Shown here piece after piece: positions 47,718-60,715 of a stretch of 64,000 nucleotides of DNA. Source of the DNA: an uncultured Candidatus Rokubacteria bacterium (lineage in GTDB: Bacteria; Methylomirabilota; Methylomirabilia; Rokubacteriales; CSP1-6). Each line of letters begins with the position of its first letter. The stretch's first letter is position 1. The notes under the pieces were generated by a model. That model was not told the origin of the DNA and made no database searches. It saw only the letters and a list, made by a program, of their open reading frames with translations. The DNA lies in assembly GCA_963771355.1 (NCBI GenBank), contig CAVYTA010000007.1:448001-512000 (forward strand), read 5' to 3'. The translations under genes were made by a program, and so were the position numbers.

Positions 47718-47734
47718 TTGGCACCGCGGTTGCT
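47718..47734 (+). promoter_or_regulatory. Sigma54 promoter
   Basis: TTGGCACCGCGGTTGCT, an exact TGGCAC-N5-TTGCW match. Confidence 0.85.
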
Positions 47735-53289: not shown

Positions 53290-54084
53290 GTGAAGGTCTC
53301 GCTTCTCGCGCTGGGGATGTCCCTGCTCGTCTCCACCGCCGCCCTGCCGGCCAGCGCGCAAAAGCGCGTGCCGGCGAGCGGCACCGCGCCGGCGGCGCGG
53401 CCCCAGGGCCCGGTGCGCCCACGTGAGACCGACACTGCGCGGCTTGAGCGCCTGGCCGCCGAGGTGGTTCGTACCACGCGGGAGTACCGGGCAAGCCTGG
53501 AGCGAATGCTCGTCATCTACCAGGGCGAGGCCGAGAGTCTCGCCGAGCTCGTCGAGGTCCGGCGCGATCTCCACCAGCGCGAGATCGTCTCCAAGCACGA
53601 GCTCGAGATCGCGGAACGCTTGCTCGCCGAGGCGCAGGCCAAGGTGACGGAGACCGAGCGCTGGATGCAGGACGCCGACAAGATCATCGGCGAGGCCACG
53701 GTGCACAGCGAGATCGCCAAGCTGCCACCGCTGCCCTCGGGCGGTTATCTCGCCACCAGCGTCTTCATTCGCTTCAACGGCTCCGCGCCCTTCTCGCTCG
53801 CCGAGGTGCCCCGCCTGGAGCGCTTCTTCGCGGGCCGTTTCGGACGCCCGCTGCCCATCAGCGCGCTCGGCCAGAGCCAGGCGCACGACCGCATCGGCTT
53901 CGACCATCGCAATGCGGTGGACGTCGCGGTGCATCCTGACAGCCCGGAGGGCCTGGCGCTGATGGGCTATCTCCAGGGCCAGAGCATCCCGTTCGTGGCC
54001 GTGCGCCAGGCGGTGCCCGGCTCGGCCACCGGCGCCCATATCCACATCGGCCAGCCGTCGCGGAGAATCGCCGGTCGACCCTGA
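53290..54084 (+). CDS. Secreted coiled-coil protein with C-terminal putative Zn-peptidase motif
   Basis: Signal peptide, heptad region, FDHRNAVDV..GAHIHIG. Confidence 0.75.
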   Translation: MKVSLLALGMSLLVSTAALPASAQKRVPASGTAPAARPQGPVRPRETDTARLERLAAEVVRTTREYRASLERMLVIYQGEAESLAELVEVRRDLHQREIVSKHELEIAERLLAEAQAKVTETERWMQDADKIIGEATVHSEIAKLPPLPSGGYLATSVFIRFNGSAPFSLAEVPRLERFFAGRFGRPLPISALGQSQAHDRIGFDHRNAVDVAVHPDSPEGLALMGYLQGQSIPFVAVRQAVPGSATGAHIHIGQPSRRIAGRP

Positions 54085-54135: not shown

Positions 54136-55539
54136 GTGGACGCCGCCGACTCTACCCGCACGATTCGTCCTGCCATCCTGGTGGTCGACGACGACCCCGG
54201 CCTCCGGGAGTCGTTCCGCCTGATCCTCGAGGACGAGTACGAGGTCCTCGACGTGCCGGACGGCGCGCAGGCTCTGGACATCGTCCGCTCCTACCAGGTG
54301 GATCTGGTGCTCCTCGACATCCGCCTGCCCGGCATGGACGGGCTCGAGGTCCTGGAGCGCATCAAGGCCCTCGACGAGCAGCTCGACGTGATCCTGGTCA
54401 CCGCGATCAAGACCGTCCGCACCGCGGTGTCGGCCATGAAGCTGGGCGCGCTCGACTACCTCACCAAGCCCTTCGACGAGGAGGAGGTGCTGGCCGTCAT
54501 CCGTCGGGCTCTCGAGAAGCGCGCCCTTGAGCGCGAGGTGGTCTTCCTGCGCTCCGAGCTGGCCCGCCGGGAAGACCTCTACGAGATGATCGGGCAGTCC
54601 GCCGAGATGCGGCGGCTCCACGGGCTGGTGGCCCAGGTGGCGCGCACTACCGCCACCGTGCTCATCACGGGGGAGAGCGGCACCGGCAAGGAGCTTCTCG
54701 CCCGCGCCGTTCACCGGCAGGGACCTCGCCGGGACCGGCCCTTCGTGGCGGTGAATCCGGCCGCCATCGCCGAGTCCCTCATGGAGACCGAGCTCTTCGG
54801 CCATGAGCGCGGCGCGTTCACGGGCGCGTACCAGCGCAAGCTCGGACGCTTCGAGCAGGCGCAGGGCGGCACGCTTTTCCTGGACGAGATCGGCGCGCTC
54901 CGCCCGGAGATGCAGGCCAAGCTCCTCCGCGTGCTCCAGGAACGGGAGATCGAGCGCGTGGGCGGTACCCACACCGTCAAGCTGGATCTGCGAATCATTG
55001 CGGCCACCAATACCGATCTCAAGCAGGCGGTGGCGGTCCAGACCTTCCGGGAGGACCTTTACTACCGCCTCAACGTCGTGCAGATCACCATGCCGTCCCT
55101 GCGTGACCGTCGGGACGACATCGGCGCGCTCGCCGACCACTTCGTCCGCCGCTATCGCCAGCAGTTCGGCAAGCCGATCGTGGGGGTGGCGCCCGACGCC
55201 CTGGAGACGCTGTCCGACTACTCCTGGCCGGGCAATGTGCGCGAGCTCCAGAACGTCATCGAGCGCTGCGTGGCCCTCGCGGAGGGTCCCCTCATCCGTC
55301 TCTCCGACCTGCCGCTGGAGTTCATGATCCCCGACGCGCGCAGCCGCGCGGACGCGGCCGGCAGTCTGGACCTCGAGGAAGCCCACGAGCAGTTCGAGCG
55401 GCAGATCGTCCGGCGCGTGCTGGACCGCGTGGACTGGAACCAGAGTGAGGCGGCCCGTCTCCTCGGTCTCCATCGCAACACGCTCAAGGTGAAGATGGCG
55501 CGCTGGAACCTCAAGCGGAGCGCGCCGGACTCGCGCTGA
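54136..55539 (+). CDS. Sigma54-dependent response regulator (NtrC/AtoC family; REC-AAA+-Fis HTH)
   Basis: GESGTGKE, ELFGHERGAFTGA, LFLDEIG, WPGNVREL, NQSEAARLLGLHRNTL. Confidence 0.95.
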   Translation: MDAADSTRTIRPAILVVDDDPGLRESFRLILEDEYEVLDVPDGAQALDIVRSYQVDLVLLDIRLPGMDGLEVLERIKALDEQLDVILVTAIKTVRTAVSAMKLGALDYLTKPFDEEEVLAVIRRALEKRALEREVVFLRSELARREDLYEMIGQSAEMRRLHGLVAQVARTTATVLITGESGTGKELLARAVHRQGPRRDRPFVAVNPAAIAESLMETELFGHERGAFTGAYQRKLGRFEQAQGGTLFLDEIGALRPEMQAKLLRVLQEREIERVGGTHTVKLDLRIIAATNTDLKQAVAVQTFREDLYYRLNVVQITMPSLRDRRDDIGALADHFVRRYRQQFGKPIVGVAPDALETLSDYSWPGNVRELQNVIERCVALAEGPLIRLSDLPLEFMIPDARSRADAAGSLDLEEAHEQFERQIVRRVLDRVDWNQSEAARLLGLHRNTLKVKMARWNLKRSAPDSR

Positions 55540-55743
55540 GCCTGCCCTGAGGGCCTCCGATGCACTGTCGGCAGGGCACGAGTTCTAAGCGCGCGTCGGA
55601 GTTGGAGAATTCGGATCGAGATCCGCCGTTTCCCACGGAGCTGCCCTGCGCGTGGGGCAGCGCGTCATGCAAGCTTCGGGTTCATGACGGTGAAATTCTC
55701 TGACGCCATGGCCACTTGGCGCGCAGGCGCGCCGCGCATATTC

Positions 55744-55760
55744 GTGGCGCTCGATTTGCT
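55744..55760 (+). promoter_or_regulatory. Sigma54 promoter
   Basis: GTGGCGCTCGATTTGCT (TGGC..TTGCT, GG-N10-GC), directly downstream of the activator gene. Confidence 0.75.
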
Positions 55761-55834
55761 CTATCCTCCCGCGCAGGCGGGCGCCTCATGGTGAGGTCCT
55801 CCCCGCCCAAACCTTTTGCTTGGGGGGAAGACCA

Positions 55835-55972
55835 ATGGTCAGGCTCGTTGCGATGCTAGCGATGCTCGCGTCCTTTCTGCTGGTGGGACCAGTGATCGAG
55901 TCGGGCACGTCGGAGTCCACGCAGATCTTCCAGGCCATCGGCACCGCGGACGGAAGCGGCGGGGGGGATTAG
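55835..55972 (+). CDS. 45-aa secreted prepeptide, candidate signalling peptide precursor (not in the ORF track)
   Basis: MVRLVAMLAMLASFLLVGPVIESGTSESTQIFQAIGTADGSGGGD*; GGGGGGAAG RBS, upstream sigma54 promoter, downstream hairpin. Confidence 0.65.
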   Translation: MVRLVAMLAMLASFLLVGPVIESGTSESTQIFQAIGTADGSGGGD

Positions 55973-56029
55973 GACACGCGGTATCGCTCCGATGCAGGCT
56001 GGGATGGAGCCCGCTGCCCGGTCGGGACG

Positions 56030-56057
56030 AAGGGGGGCTTCGGCCCCCCTTTGCTCT
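56030..56057 (+). terminator. Stem-loop, candidate terminator/attenuator after the peptide gene
   Basis: AAGGGGGGC-TTCG-GCCCCCCTT followed by TGCTCT; perfect 9-bp stem with cUUCGg loop and a short U-tract. Confidence 0.7.
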
Positions 56058-57652
56058 TCGCCGGCTTCGTGCTCGCGGCCGCGCTCCTGGTATGCGGTCA
56101 GCTCGCTCCCGCGACGGGGCAGGAGCGCCCGCCGGGCTCGCCCACGCTGTCCGCGGTCTACCGTCGACCGCTGGGCAACGATCCCGGCACGCTCGATCCG
56201 CCGCGCATCAGCGACACGTATGGCCGCTCGGTGGCGGAGCAGATCTTCGACGGCCTGGTTCAGTTCGATCAGACTCTCACCGTCAGCCCGGCGCTGGCCC
56301 GCTTCTGGAAAGCCTCGCGCGACGGCCTCACCTGGACCTTCAACCTTCGGCAGGGCGTGCGCTTCCATCACGGTCGGGAGCTCACCTCGGAGGACGTGGT
56401 CTACTCCCTCACCCGGCTCCTCGATCCGCGCCTCCGATCGGGCGCGGCCGAGCAATTCGCCGTGATCCGCGGCGCGCGAGAGTTCCGGGAGGGCAAGGTG
56501 AGCCGGGTGGAAGGCCTCCGCGCGATCGACCGCTATACCGTGGAGGTCTCGCTCACCGAGGCCTTCACGCCCTTCGTCTCCGTCCTCGCGGTCGGCCACG
56601 CGAAGATCGTTCCCAAGGAGCTGGCGGAGGCGCAGGGGGAGGCCTTCGGCACGCAGCCCGTCGGCACCGGACCCTACAAGTTCTCGCACTGGGAACGGGG
56701 AAAAGAGATCGCGCTCGTCGCCAACGGGGACTACTTCGGGGGCGCGCCCCAGCTCGCGCGCGTGCTCTATCGGATCTTCCCGGGGGAATCCAGCGATCAG
56801 ATCTGTCGGGAGTTCGAGCAGGGCAACCTCGAGGAGAGCCCGGTGCCCCCGGTCTGCCGGGGCAAGGTGGGCGACTCTCGCTACCTTCACGTGCAGCGCC
56901 CCACCTTCAGCGTGCGGTTTTACGGCTTCAACACGCGCTTCAAGCCGCTCAGCGACGAGCGGATCCGGATGGCCATCACGCATGCGCTGGACCGGGAACG
57001 GATCCTCCAGGAGATCTTCGCGGGCCGGTTTCAGGCCGCCCGTAGCATCCTCCCCCCGGGGATGCCGGGCCACAATCCGAGCATCAAGACCCCGCCGCAC
57101 GACCTGGCGCGGGCGCGGGCGCTGCTCCGCGCGGCGGGGTATCCCGAGGGCAAGGGGATTCCCGTCATCCCGATCTGGTCGAGCGTGAGGAGCCCGCGGA
57201 TCGAGAGCGAGCTCGCCGCGATCAAGACGCAGCTCCACGCGATCGGCATCCACGCGGAAACCAACTTCGAGACCGACTGGCCAGTCTTCTCGAAGCGCCT
57301 GGTCGAAGGTCGGCTGCCCATGTTCCTCTATGCGTGGCACGCGGAGCTGCCCGATCCGGACAGCTTCCTGTTTCAGCTCTTCCACTCGAAGAGCCCGCGT
57401 AACCCCACCGGGTATGCCAATCCCGTGGTGGACGCGCTGCTCGTCCAGGCCCGCCGGGAAAAAGACATCCTGCGCCGGAAGGAGATCTACCAGCGGGCGG
57501 AGCCTCTGATCCTCGAAGATGCCCCGGTGATCCCGGTGTGGCACTACGCCTACGAGCGGCTCTTCCAGGGATATGTCCGCAACGTCGAGGTCAGCGGGCT
57601 CGGCGAGGCCTATATCCCCCTCCGCAAGATCTGGCTGGAGGACCGTCGGTGA
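56051..57652 (+). CDS. Orphan oligopeptide-binding protein (SBP family 5, OppA/DppA-like) coupled to a sensor kinase
   Basis: DPGTLDP, IFDGLV, TWTFNLRQGVRFHHGRELTSEDVVYS, PVGTGPY; no permease or ATPase genes nearby; stop overlaps the kinase start. TTG start is uncertain. Confidence 0.88.
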   Translation: MLFAGFVLAAALLVCGQLAPATGQERPPGSPTLSAVYRRPLGNDPGTLDPPRISDTYGRSVAEQIFDGLVQFDQTLTVSPALARFWKASRDGLTWTFNLRQGVRFHHGRELTSEDVVYSLTRLLDPRLRSGAAEQFAVIRGAREFREGKVSRVEGLRAIDRYTVEVSLTEAFTPFVSVLAVGHAKIVPKELAEAQGEAFGTQPVGTGPYKFSHWERGKEIALVANGDYFGGAPQLARVLYRIFPGESSDQICREFEQGNLEESPVPPVCRGKVGDSRYLHVQRPTFSVRFYGFNTRFKPLSDERIRMAITHALDRERILQEIFAGRFQAARSILPPGMPGHNPSIKTPPHDLARARALLRAAGYPEGKGIPVIPIWSSVRSPRIESELAAIKTQLHAIGIHAETNFETDWPVFSKRLVEGRLPMFLYAWHAELPDPDSFLFQLFHSKSPRNPTGYANPVVDALLVQARREKDILRRKEIYQRAEPLILEDAPVIPVWHYAYERLFQGYVRNVEVSGLGEAYIPLRKIWLEDRR

Positions 57653-59565
57653 TCGGGGGCCGCGTCCATCGCCGCCTCGGCCTCCGCCTGGGCTCGCTCC
57701 AGGCGCGCTTCCTGTTGGGCTCCGTCCTGATCTTCCTGGTGGTGATGACGGGAGTGCTCGCGGTGGTGGAGTACGGGCAGCGCGCGGCCATCATCGAAGA
57801 AGTGCTGCGCCGGGGAGAAGTGATCACGCGCGATCTGGCCGCCATCTCGTCCCCGTCGCTCCTGCTCTACAGCTTCACCGATCTCGAGCAAAATGTGGAC
57901 CGGGTGCGGGCCAATGCGGACGTGGTGTACGCCATCATCGTGGACGCCGAGGGCAAGGTGGCGGCCCACAGCGGGCGTCCGGAGCTGGTGGGCCGGGTGC
58001 TCTCGGCGCCGCTGGACCGGCGCGCGGTGGCCACCGACGTGCTCCTCGTGCAGGAGACGCTGCGGCAGAGCCGCCACGACGGCGTGTATGACTTCGCCGT
58101 CCCGGTGCTGGTGGGCGCGCAGCGCTGGGGGACCGCCCGGGTCGGGTTGTCCAAGCGGCGCATGGAGGACCAGATCTTCCGGACCCGTCTGGAGCTGGCC
58201 GGGCTCACGGTGATCACGCTCCTCGTCGGCGGCCTCGCCGCCGCCCTGGTGGCTCGCCGCATCGCGCGCCCGGTGCGCGAGCTGGCCGCCGGCGCGGAGG
58301 CCATCGCGCGCGGGGAACTGGACCAGCGCATCGCGCCCACCGGACTCGGCGAGATCGGCCAGCTCGCGCTGGCCTTCAATCACATGGCCGCGCAGCTCCT
58401 CCAGCAGCGGAACGATCTCGAGGCCACCCACGCCGAGGTCCGGGTCCGCTTTCAGGAAGTCGCGGACCTCAAGCGCTATACCGACAGTATCCTGTCCTCG
58501 ATCACCAGCGGCATCGTGACCCTGGATCTGGACGGACGCGTGGCCACGATGAATCCCGCCGCCGAGATCCTCACCGGGCTCTTCGCCGAGGAGATCACGG
58601 GGCGCTACTGCGCGGAGGTCTTCGCCCACACCCCGGAAGTGGCGGAGATCCTCATGGAAACCCTGTCCAGCCGGTCGGGTACCGCCAACGTCTCGCTCAC
58701 CCTGCGCCGACTCAACGGCACCACCGTGCCGGTCGAGATGGGGACCGCCCCTCTTCGGCGGCTGGAGGGCAAGGACCTGGGCGTGGTGGGCGTGTTCCGC
58801 GACGTCAGCCAGGTCCGCGAGCTGGAGGGACAGCTCCGGCGCTCCGACCGGCTCGCCGCACTGGGCACGCTGGCCGCCGGCCTCGCGCACGAGATCAAGA
58901 ACCCGCTCGCCTCCCTGCGCACCTTCACCCGCATCATCCCGCGCAAGTTCGAGGACCCGCGCTTCCGCGAGACCTTCATGCGCGTGGTGCCGCACGAGCT
59001 GGAGCGGATCAACGGCATCGTGGAGCAGCTCCTCGAGCTCGCCCGGCCCAGCCGGCTCCGCCCGGCTCCCACCGCGATCCCGGTGCTGCTCGACCGGGTG
59101 CTCGAGCTGTACGCCAACGAGCTCGACACCAAGCAGGTGGTGGTGGTGCGCGAGTACGCGCGCGACCTGCCCACCCTCGGCGCGGACCAGGACCGCCTCT
59201 ACGAGGCGTTCGTCAACCTCGTGAGCAATGCGCTGGAGGCGATGGAAACGGGCGGACGGCTCACCGTCCGCACCGGCTGGCACCGCGGCGCCGAGGCGGA
59301 GGCGGGCGGCACGGGCCGGCGACGGATGCGCGTCGAGATCGAGGATTCGGGCAGCGGCATCTCTCCCTCGGAGGCCGACAAAGTGTTCGATCCGTTCTTC
59401 ACGACCAAGGCGGCGGGGACCGGTCTCGGGCTTGCGCTGACCCACAAGATCATCGAGGACCACGGCGGCAGCATCAGCTTCCGCAGTGCTCCCGGCGTGG
59501 GCACCACGTTCACGGTGGTGCTGCCCATGGTCGCGGAGCGGCCGTCGGGAGAGCGCGATGCCTAA
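57649..59565 (+). CDS. Sensor histidine kinase (TM, periplasmic Cache-like, HAMP, PAS, HisKA, HATPase; AtoS/NtrB-like)
   Basis: GTGA overlap; EIGQLALAFNHM, ILSSITSGIVTLDLDG..NPAAE, AGLAHEIKNPL, PFFTTK..GTGLGL. Confidence 0.92.
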   Translation: MIGGRVHRRLGLRLGSLQARFLLGSVLIFLVVMTGVLAVVEYGQRAAIIEEVLRRGEVITRDLAAISSPSLLLYSFTDLEQNVDRVRANADVVYAIIVDAEGKVAAHSGRPELVGRVLSAPLDRRAVATDVLLVQETLRQSRHDGVYDFAVPVLVGAQRWGTARVGLSKRRMEDQIFRTRLELAGLTVITLLVGGLAAALVARRIARPVRELAAGAEAIARGELDQRIAPTGLGEIGQLALAFNHMAAQLLQQRNDLEATHAEVRVRFQEVADLKRYTDSILSSITSGIVTLDLDGRVATMNPAAEILTGLFAEEITGRYCAEVFAHTPEVAEILMETLSSRSGTANVSLTLRRLNGTTVPVEMGTAPLRRLEGKDLGVVGVFRDVSQVRELEGQLRRSDRLAALGTLAAGLAHEIKNPLASLRTFTRIIPRKFEDPRFRETFMRVVPHELERINGIVEQLLELARPSRLRPAPTAIPVLLDRVLELYANELDTKQVVVVREYARDLPTLGADQDRLYEAFVNLVSNALEAMETGGRLTVRTGWHRGAEAEAGGTGRRRMRVEIEDSGSGISPSEADKVFDPFFTTKAAGTGLGLALTHKIIEDHGGSISFRSAPGVGTTFTVVLPMVAERPSGERDA

Positions 59566-60715
59566 GCCGGCCATCGCGGACCCGCAGGTCGAGCGGCGCA
59601 TCGCGCGCTCCGAGGTGATCAGCAAGGTCGCGGGGGGCGTGGTTCACAACTTCAACAACATCCTCTCGGTGCTGCTCGGCCGCGTGGAGCTGATGCTGGG
59701 CCAGGTGGATGGCGGCCGGCTGGACCCCACCCAGCTCCGCAAGGGGCTCGTGTCGATCCAGAAGGCGGCGCTGGATGCCGCCGAGCTGCTGACGCGCCTG
59801 CGCGATCTCGCCCGGCCTCCCCAGGACGTGCCCTTCTCCACCTTCGACCTCAACGCCGCCGTGGCCGAGGCCATCGACTTCATCCAGCCTCACCTCATGA
59901 CGGTGGCGCAGGGTATGGGGATCACGGTACGGCTCACGCCGCGACTGGCGCCCCCGCCGGTGCTGGTGTCCGGGCAGTCCAGCGCCCTGCGCGAGGTGCT
60001 GGTGAACCTGATCCTCAACGCCATCGAGGCCATGCCCGAGGGCGGCGATGTGGGCATCGAGACGCGGCGCGACGGCCCGTGGGTGAAGCTCCAGGTGTCG
60101 GATACCGGGATCGGCATGACGGAGGAGGTCCGCGCCCAGGTCTTCAGGCCGTTCTTCACCACCAAGTCGGCCGGCTCCACCGGCCTGGGCCTTTCCTCGG
60201 CCAAGGACCTCATCACCGGACACGGGGGCACGATCTCGGTGGCGAGCACGCCGGGGCGGGGCTGCACGTTCACCATCGCGTTGCCGAGCGCGGAGAGCCG
60301 CCCGGGTCCCGTCGATGCCGCCGCGGAGCCGGCGCTGCCGCCGGGCCTCCGGGTGCTGGTGGTGGACGACCAGCGTGATTTTGGCGACATCCTGCGCGAG
60401 TTCCTCGGGGCCAAGGGCTGCTCGGTTGCCATCGTTCGAAGTGGCCGGGCCGCCCTCGAGGCCCTCGAGCGGCACCGGTTCGACCTCGTGCTCACCGATC
60501 TGCTGCTGCCCGAGGTGAGCGGCTGGGAGATCGCCCGCGTGGCCAAGCGCCGGTCGCTCGGCATCCGCGTCATCCTCATGTCCGGCAATATCGTGGCCGA
60601 GGATCTCTGGAGCGCGGCCAGCGTGGACGCGTGCCTCATGAAGCCCATCGACCTCAACAAGCTCCTCGGCGTGATGGCCGAGGTGCTCGTCGGGGTCCCG
60701 CGCCGCGACGCCTGA
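59558..60715 (+). CDS. Sensor-less hybrid kinase (HisKA-HATPase-REC)
   Basis: AGGVVHNFNNIL about 30 aa from the start, NLILNAIEAM, PFFTTK, VVDDQ..LTD..KPI. Confidence 0.85.
   Translation: MPKPAIADPQVERRIARSEVISKVAGGVVHNFNNILSVLLGRVELMLGQVDGGRLDPTQLRKGLVSIQKAALDAAELLTRLRDLARPPQDVPFSTFDLNAAVAEAIDFIQPHLMTVAQGMGITVRLTPRLAPPPVLVSGQSSALREVLVNLILNAIEAMPEGGDVGIETRRDGPWVKLQVSDTGIGMTEEVRAQVFRPFFTTKSAGSTGLGLSSAKDLITGHGGTISVASTPGRGCTFTIALPSAESRPGPVDAAAEPALPPGLRVLVVDDQRDFGDILREFLGAKGCSVAIVRSGRAALEALERHRFDLVLTDLLLPEVSGWEIARVAKRRSLGIRVILMSGNIVAEDLWSAASVDACLMKPIDLNKLLGVMAEVLVGVPRRDA

Follow-up and report, generated by a model that had tools for sequence, protein, structure and literature searches.

A conserved, transcribed small gene beside an orphan OppA-type binding protein and a Cache histidine kinase in Rokubacteria, a candidate source of a signalling peptide

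Described peptide signals, kinase co-sensors and the cassette

Peptide autoinduction is textbook material for Gram-positive bacteria, and Agr and ComCDE are autoinduction loops built from a peptide and a kinase. Phr peptides return to the cell through Opp, and RRNPPA receptors in the cytoplasm bind them (PMC11343458). Binding proteins are also established as co-sensors of kinases, including the family-5 protein CBP with ChiS in Vibrio cholerae and LuxP with LuxQ (PMC8050422). A dedicated family-5 receptor that hands a self-made peptide to a kinase is absent from the pairs in Table 3 of this 2021 review.

The window (the whole stretch of DNA analysed, 64,000 nucleotides of a Rokubacteria genome) contains a 45-residue ORF that a preliminary description had called an unannotated, Phr-like secreted prepeptide. 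It lies in a cassette of fixed order: sigma-54 activator, palindromes with a -24/-12 promoter, peptide, orphan binding protein and Cache histidine kinase. The features are as follows.

54136..55539 (+), sigma-54 response regulator (Pfam): REC with D61, AAA+ with GAFTGA, Fis-type HTH, recognition helix HRNTL
55561..55578 (no strand), distal enhancer palindrome TGCAC-N8-G[TG]GCA, -184 from the promoter; position kept in relatives
55642..55659 (no strand), proximal enhancer palindrome, -103 from the promoter
55745..55760 (+), sigma-54 -24/-12 promoter TGGCGCTCGATTTGCT, by pattern
55784..55796 (+), small 5'-leader hairpin CCTC-ATGGT-GAGG, recurring in Rokubacteriales with an AUGGG/AUGGU loop
55822-55830, purine-rich, ribosome-site-like run GGGGGGAAG upstream of the peptide ORF
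55835..55972 (+), 45-aa prepeptide: n-region with R3, h-region 4-18, invariant P19 and E22, variable linker, F32-x-x-[IV]-G36-x-A38-[DE], Gly-rich tail
56027..56058 (+), intrinsic-terminator-like hairpin (56032-56048 plus a T run) between the peptide and binding-protein genes, fold z -2.3
56051..57652 (+), orphan family-5 solute-binding protein of OppA/DppA fold (Pfam), start codon uncertain
57649..59565 (+), membrane histidine kinase (Pfam): TM-sCache-TM-HAMP-PAS-HisKA-HATPase
59558..60715 (+), cytoplasmic hybrid kinase-receiver (Pfam), accessory, behind the kinase in close relatives only

Both orders of the class share this arrangement, between binding proteins of as little as 46% identity. 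Of 115 non-redundant loci, 114 have the binding protein and 111 of these 114 also have the peptide (106 by pattern and five by a looser pattern or by eye; ten of the 115 loci were fetched through the peptide). The three binding-protein loci without a peptide are two at contig edges and one displaced second copy. At the genome level (251 genomes), 112 have both genes, 15 the peptide only, ten the binding protein only and 114 neither; five of the ten 'binding protein only' genomes hold a divergent peptide, and entire genera lack both. Among the neighbours listed, the cassette had no conserved peptidase or exporter at its side. A literature search that reached few subscription journals returned no description of the cassette; small-protein catalogues in supplements could list the family. 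The host genome encodes BamA (diderm), sigma-54 (rpoN) and one signal peptidase I.

Two further genes were noted. Only in close relatives is the activator gene immediately preceded by that for a 264-aa secreted-looking protein of no family (53290-54084, +). At locus L150 (G079:C45) a second cassette-type binding protein (50%), with no peptide, stands ahead of a different membrane sensor protein.

The peptide gene and its conservation

The 45-aa ORF is a real, conserved and transcribed small gene. Translation of 55835-55972 (+) gave the same 45 residues, closed by a TAG stop, that the preliminary description had quoted, and heuristic scoring of the layout agreed with its account: one basic residue (R3), 15 hydrophobic residues from L4 to G18 (mean Kyte-Doolittle 2.5) and a polar, acidic, Gly-rich tail. 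In 116 of 123 peptide copies a ribosome-site-like run lies ahead of the gene, and the ORF stood upstream of the binding-protein gene at 30/30 loci first examined (fetched via the binding protein). Conservation of the ORF and synonymous bias, proposed earlier as a check on the gene, were both found, with a pooled pairwise dN/dS of 0.148 across seven genomes of the genus; the binding protein, at 0.226 in the same seven genomes, lies above this value. Over 38 copies, whose kin are not independent, the peptide had a dN/dS of 0.35, distributed as 0.09 for residues 14-23, 0.18 for residues 32-39, 0.65 for the linker and 0.33-0.53 for the first ten h-region residues.

A profile of the 38 copies matches 127/251 genomes of the phylum Methylomirabilota/Rokubacteria, a count that includes three weak and probably chance matches (E 0.002-0.007, in families without the binding protein). 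The same profile found 1662 related proteins among 7980 scored database candidates. Outside the phylum there were 84 representatives at 50% identity; nearly all of the 35 that were read have the same motif, some in frameshifted or chimeric form, and named members in the ten clusters looked up from this set were NC10 only. The window peptide matched no Pfam or NCBIfam family at E<=1, and 30 members gave weak, unrelated matches only. The word 'unannotated' holds only in part, since gene callers enter relatives as hypothetical proteins. The peptide had no convincing paralogue in its own genome and no match in phage, plasmid and viral collections; Rfam gave two matches at chance level, and the ESM Atlas unnamed clusters only.

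Near-identical RNA contigs cover the peptide gene in at least five of seven RNA runs, from five studies (runs selected by a match to 55300-56500), with spans of 55785-56074, 55757-55953, 55788-56038, 55806-56001 and 55869-56028; run X14 has no contig on the peptide. Since the contigs are strandless and may hold DNA, they support transcription of the gene, not its level.

In 30 diverse copies M1, P19, E22, G36 and A38 are invariant and K/R3, L15 and F32 nearly so; F32 is conserved in 164/172 anchored sequences. The linker between P-x-x-E and the F-motif varies in length, and the stretch after G-x-A is the most variable in both length and letters, with 72 variants in 117 strings that were not fully de-duplicated. 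By this pattern the information lies with P-x-x-E at the membrane edge and with the F-x-x-[IV]-G-x-A motif rather than with the Gly tail. The preliminary description had drawn the signal from the C-terminal region and proposed IGTADGSGGGD as the mature peptide. Neither suggestion sits well with the alignment: the conserved motif is internal, and the proposed peptide omits F32 while retaining the most variable part. IGTADGSGGGD is possible as a mature form if F-x-x is a protease site.

Residues 19-45 are identical in five genomes whose binding proteins are 70-90% identical. Natural peptide types include FQAIGTA, FLAIGNA and FSRVGMA, and the types FQA-IGT-A, hydrophobic-A-IGN-A and FQA-VGN-A are scattered across genera. 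Several lineages have two to five tandem peptide copies per locus, some of them identical, as would be expected if much of the product is required. Peptides of genus g35 have an added Cys after G-x-A and a terminal Trp, with 2-5 divergent tandem copies spaced at ~215 nt; loci of this type are L021, L132, L138, L174, L176, L180, L212 and L213.

One alternative for a conserved short precursor of this kind is a RiPP, with leader and core encoded here and modifying enzymes encoded elsewhere. The conserved F-x-x-x-G-x-A-[DE] motif and the clade with Cys after G-x-A and tandem copies would suit such a product. However, YcaO and AgrB were not found in the window's genome, no modifying enzyme was seen in the neighbourhoods read and the leader is a plain hydrophobic helix, so that we find this reading hardly credible.

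The likeness to Phr has two parts. The short Sec-type layout stands; Phr-type wiring does not, given the lack of a Rap and of an adjacent permease and the diderm host. A cognate Rap was sought and rejected, as the 99.8% complete genome has no RapH_N match where the B. subtilis control was positive, and the gene upstream encodes a REC-AAA-HTH sigma-54 activator, not a TPR receptor. A true Phr/RNPP-type pheromone would leave the cell, be cleaved, return through an Opp permease whose genes lie elsewhere and bind a receptor in the cytoplasm. Size, layout and the adjoining Opp-like binding protein agree with this, the genome has many ABC peptide transporters, and PrgZ is a family-5 pheromone-binding protein. 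The cassette nevertheless has neither Rap nor TPR receptor, and its binding-protein gene is coupled by a stop/start overlap to a membrane kinase and not to a permease; we consider a pheromone of this type very improbable.

Promoter, activator and candidate regulon

The -24/-12 promoter was found in 37/38 activator-peptide intergenic regions (mean of shuffles 0.5), and TGCAC-N7/8-GTGCA palindromes near -185/-205 and -102 likewise in 37/38 (mean of shuffles 7.2), both kinds of site at fixed distances; from the promoter, the peptide mRNA is predicted to start near 55772. The 38 regions derive from 42 loci tried, three being without the activator end and one a duplicate. The activator falls below every NCBIfam equivalog cut-off. 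We take its recognition helix to be NtrC-like and the palindromes to resemble NtrC sites. Downstream, the terminator-like hairpin follows the peptide at 42/106 loci and would enrich peptide mRNA. The leader as a whole folds ordinarily (z -0.03). Its small hairpin has an AUGGG/AUGGU pentaloop and a stem that covaries in many Rokubacteriales copies, and is a possible protein-binding or stability element. Further sigma-54 promoter-like sites lie 4-8 kb upstream, at 47719, 48030, 51603 (-) and 51867; genes close to them include a kinase, a lytic transglycosylase and one with a FecR domain.

The genome also encodes a paralogous sigma-54 activator (G000:C6:1755246-1756682, -) with 63% identity in the AAA domain and an identical HRNTL helix. 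It is flanked by a DegP-like protease and a phosphonate-type binding protein, both named from sequence appearance, and is also present in 5/5 cassette-less genomes tested. Because this paralogue has the same recognition helix, the neighbouring activator may not be the only reader of the palindromes, and the regulon described below is not assignable to that activator alone.

The palindrome-plus-promoter pattern occurs in 57/101 genomes, against 22 for the reversed control. Fifty-three such promoters were read in 50 loci, nine of them the peptide's own, and 24 products of such sites were scanned. The other genes behind the pattern encode large secreted PKD/Ig/NHL or DUF7948 proteins, Tle1-like and patatin phospholipases, MASE1 kinases, small Fis-type and receiver proteins, GlnK and MaoC-like proteins. 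Judged from sequence, the large secreted PKD/Ig/NHL proteins, the phospholipases and further regulators are weak candidates for outputs.

In the window's genome two related MaoC/FAS1-dehydratase-like genes (G000:C6 near 1626176, +, and 2499586, -) have palindromes at -182/-100, as at the peptide promoter; one of the two copies looks frameshifted. A stand-alone Fis-type HTH protein of 80-120 aa is encoded behind a sigma-54 promoter with tandem TGCAC palindromes (G000:C5 near 768620, +). It is widespread in the order (L225, L231, L236, L241, L243) and could compete for the same sites.

Maturation, binding protein and kinase in the proposed loop

The family-5 protein yielded a model of pLDDT 90, for which a fold search returned OppA, DppA, MppA, AppA and PrgZ (TM 0.81-0.85 to liganded OppA/DppA structures). 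Its W429-x-x-D432 aligns with the W-x-x-D of DppA-type proteins; W429 is invariant and D432 occurs in nearly all relatives, the window's own protein having E432 instead of D. The Asp of W-x-x-D holds the free amino end of the ligand, and the site thus fits a cut peptide as ligand. DppA D436 is named in the title of PDB 8z1z. Around residues 378-380, where an Arg for the carboxyl end of the ligand was considered, the alignment is ambiguous. A permease within 4 kb of the cassette binding protein was found at 0/29 loci; distant family-5 loci have a permease in 65/82 cases and a kinase or activator in 0/82. Seven loci (L124-L130) belong to a second conserved family-5 group of 35-39% identity, often with two tandem binding-protein genes; none of the seven has a peptide, a kinase or an activator. 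The start of the kinase gene and the stop of the binding-protein gene overlap in the cassette. As its sensor the kinase has one PAS-like Cache domain (sCache_3_2), for which the model and fold search gave WalK-, CitA- and DcuS-like matches.

Cleavage by signal peptidase follows the -3/-1 rule. Over 117 strings the rule was satisfied by A18|P19 in 0/117 (proline block), by S23 in 99/117, by T25 in 103/117 and by G-x-A38 in 117/117, the last at ~19 residues from the h-region. No lipobox was found in the peptide strings.

The peptide gene most likely yields a signalling peptide. We suggest that the product would be exported by Sec and then cut, and that the OppA-type protein next to it, which has no transporter, would bind a fragment carrying or bordered by F-x-x-[IV]-G-x-A. 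The loaded binding protein would switch the neighbouring Cache kinase, which would act through the sigma-54 activator on the peptide's own promoter, giving a predicted autoinduction loop. We lean towards this chain from exported, cut peptide through binding protein, kinase and activator back to the peptide promoter. We infer its export, cleavage site, binding, binding-protein/kinase contact, kinase/activator pairing and sign, as well as outer-membrane passage and cell-to-cell action.

Some observations argue against the loop. At the membrane edge, residues 14-23 are under constraint as strong as that on the tail motif; this would be unusual in a signal peptide that is thrown away, but is typical where there is a partner in the membrane. 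The copies have no signal-peptidase site in common, and the peptide is near-invariant between species, unlike strain-specific pheromones. In addition, porins have a limit near 600 Da, so that a peptide of at least eight residues would cross the outer membrane poorly.

In the main rival reading the product would stay uncleaved in the inner membrane, or as a fragment confined to the periplasm, and act as a feedback partner within its own cell, as MgrB does for PhoQ. The tail would dock on the binding protein or the kinase and set the kinase baseline, and the sensed event would be proteolysis or displacement by an outside peptide. MgrB itself is 47 aa long, with N-terminal lysines, one helix and a periplasmic tail, and belongs to the regulon of its own kinase (PMC8404706). 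The invariant P19 and E22 within the conserved residues 14-23, the proline at +1 of the nearest A-site together with the lack of a universal cleavage site, and the near-invariance of the peptide between species all agree with such a partner; the outer-membrane barrier agrees with it or with a confined peptide. However, the first ten h-region residues are free to vary and the linker changes in length. MgrB works without a binding protein. The binding protein here keeps an acid residue for a free amino end, and in the window's genus it is the binding protein that changes with peptide type while the kinase sensor and helices do not. We think a membrane-held or periplasm-confined partner unlikely, though well worth keeping in mind; if true, it would be a new kind of small regulator, one that works by way of a binding protein.

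To see which partner follows the peptide, we compared the cassette parts over 63 Rokubacteriales loci having all four. The fewest changes of peptide type were required on the binding-protein tree (5), compared with 7 for the activator, 7 for the kinase sensor and 8 for the cytoplasmic part of the kinase. In the window's genus, identity between and within types was 0.69/0.80 for the binding protein and 0.89/0.88, 0.78/0.79 and 0.86/0.87 for the other three parts. Two FLAIGNA and four FQAIGTA genomes of this genus are separated by fixed differences at 42/496 positions of the binding protein, 11/504 of the kinase and 5/310 of the activator. Binding-protein data reject an activator-like grouping (p-AU 0.025), but activator and kinase data do not reject a peptide-type grouping (p-AU 0.22 and 0.24), the groups in these tests having been named only once the trees were in view. 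The kinase sensor of genus g42 shows divergence as large as that of the binding protein (0.80 to 0.60), and no binding-protein columns separated the peptide types better than activator columns did (overlap under 0.35: 3/495 vs 3/311). As there is one clean contrast (2 vs 4-5 genomes), the coupling of peptide and binding protein is only suggestive: aligned sequences of the window's genus suggest that peptide motif and binding protein change together, and either a swap of type or fast divergence of the binding protein could have produced the pattern.

The distribution of the genes also bears on the ligand. If binding protein and kinase sensed an environmental compound, as in three-component nutrient sensors such as AioXSR or CBP-ChiS, the peptide would merely be the first output of the promoter, with its job elsewhere. 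The characterised binding-protein/kinase pairs in Table 3 of PMC8050422 all sense small molecules or sugars, and many family-5 proteins have non-peptide ligands. The cassette, however, comes without accompanying catabolic or transport genes, none having been seen travelling with it in the neighbourhoods read, and the peptide is lost, kept and changed along with the binding protein. A nutrient sensor is on these grounds improbable.

For the signalling-peptide loop a wider setting can be proposed tentatively, and we regard it as possible but short of probable: a class-wide peptide quorum sensing of diderm soil bacteria and their NC10 methanotroph relatives, in which a periplasmic OppA-type protein, dedicated to a Sec-exported pheromone and docked on a Cache kinase, would act as receptor. 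Autoinduction would run through sigma-54, peptide and receptor types would be exchangeable, and large secreted adhesin-like proteins and phospholipases would be under control of the system. If true, this would open a first way into the signalling of a soil lineage that is abundant and uncultured.

Compared with Rap-Phr/RRNPPA systems (PMC11343458), the cassette shares a peptide of ~45 residues with a Sec-type N-terminus, likely proteolytic maturation and the involvement of a family-5 binding protein. It differs in having no Rap/TPR receptor and no adjacent permease and in its diderm host; sensing would take place at the surface via a kinase, and output would run via sigma-54. The likeness to MgrB-PhoQ (PMC8404706) lies in size, single helix, basic N-terminus, periplasmic tail and a gene under control of the partner system, the last predicted here. 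The peptide has no sequence family match, and the dedicated binding protein of the cassette travels and changes with the peptide.

CBP-ChiS and LuxP-LuxQ resemble the cassette in that a periplasmic binding protein is encoded with a Cache-type kinase, CBP being of family 5 as well (PMC8050422). LuxPQ is moreover a quorum-sensing receptor that feeds the sigma-54 activator LuxO, according to the NCBIfam description. Their ligands are chitin oligomers and AI-2, whereas here the ligand is likely a peptide made by the ribosome from a gene of the cassette itself. The kinase of the cassette has a single sCache, and the activator reaches 332 bits where the LuxO cut-off is 800. With Agr and ComCDE the cassette shares the placing of peptide, kinase and regulator in one locus and feedback on the peptide promoter; it differs in the lack of AgrB and of any dedicated ABC exporter seen, in its HisKA/Cache kinase with a separate binding protein, in sigma-54 output and in the diderm host. 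If it works at all, the cassette would, by analogy, be a hybrid of Agr/Com-type autoinduction and co-sensing of the CBP-ChiS or LuxPQ kind.
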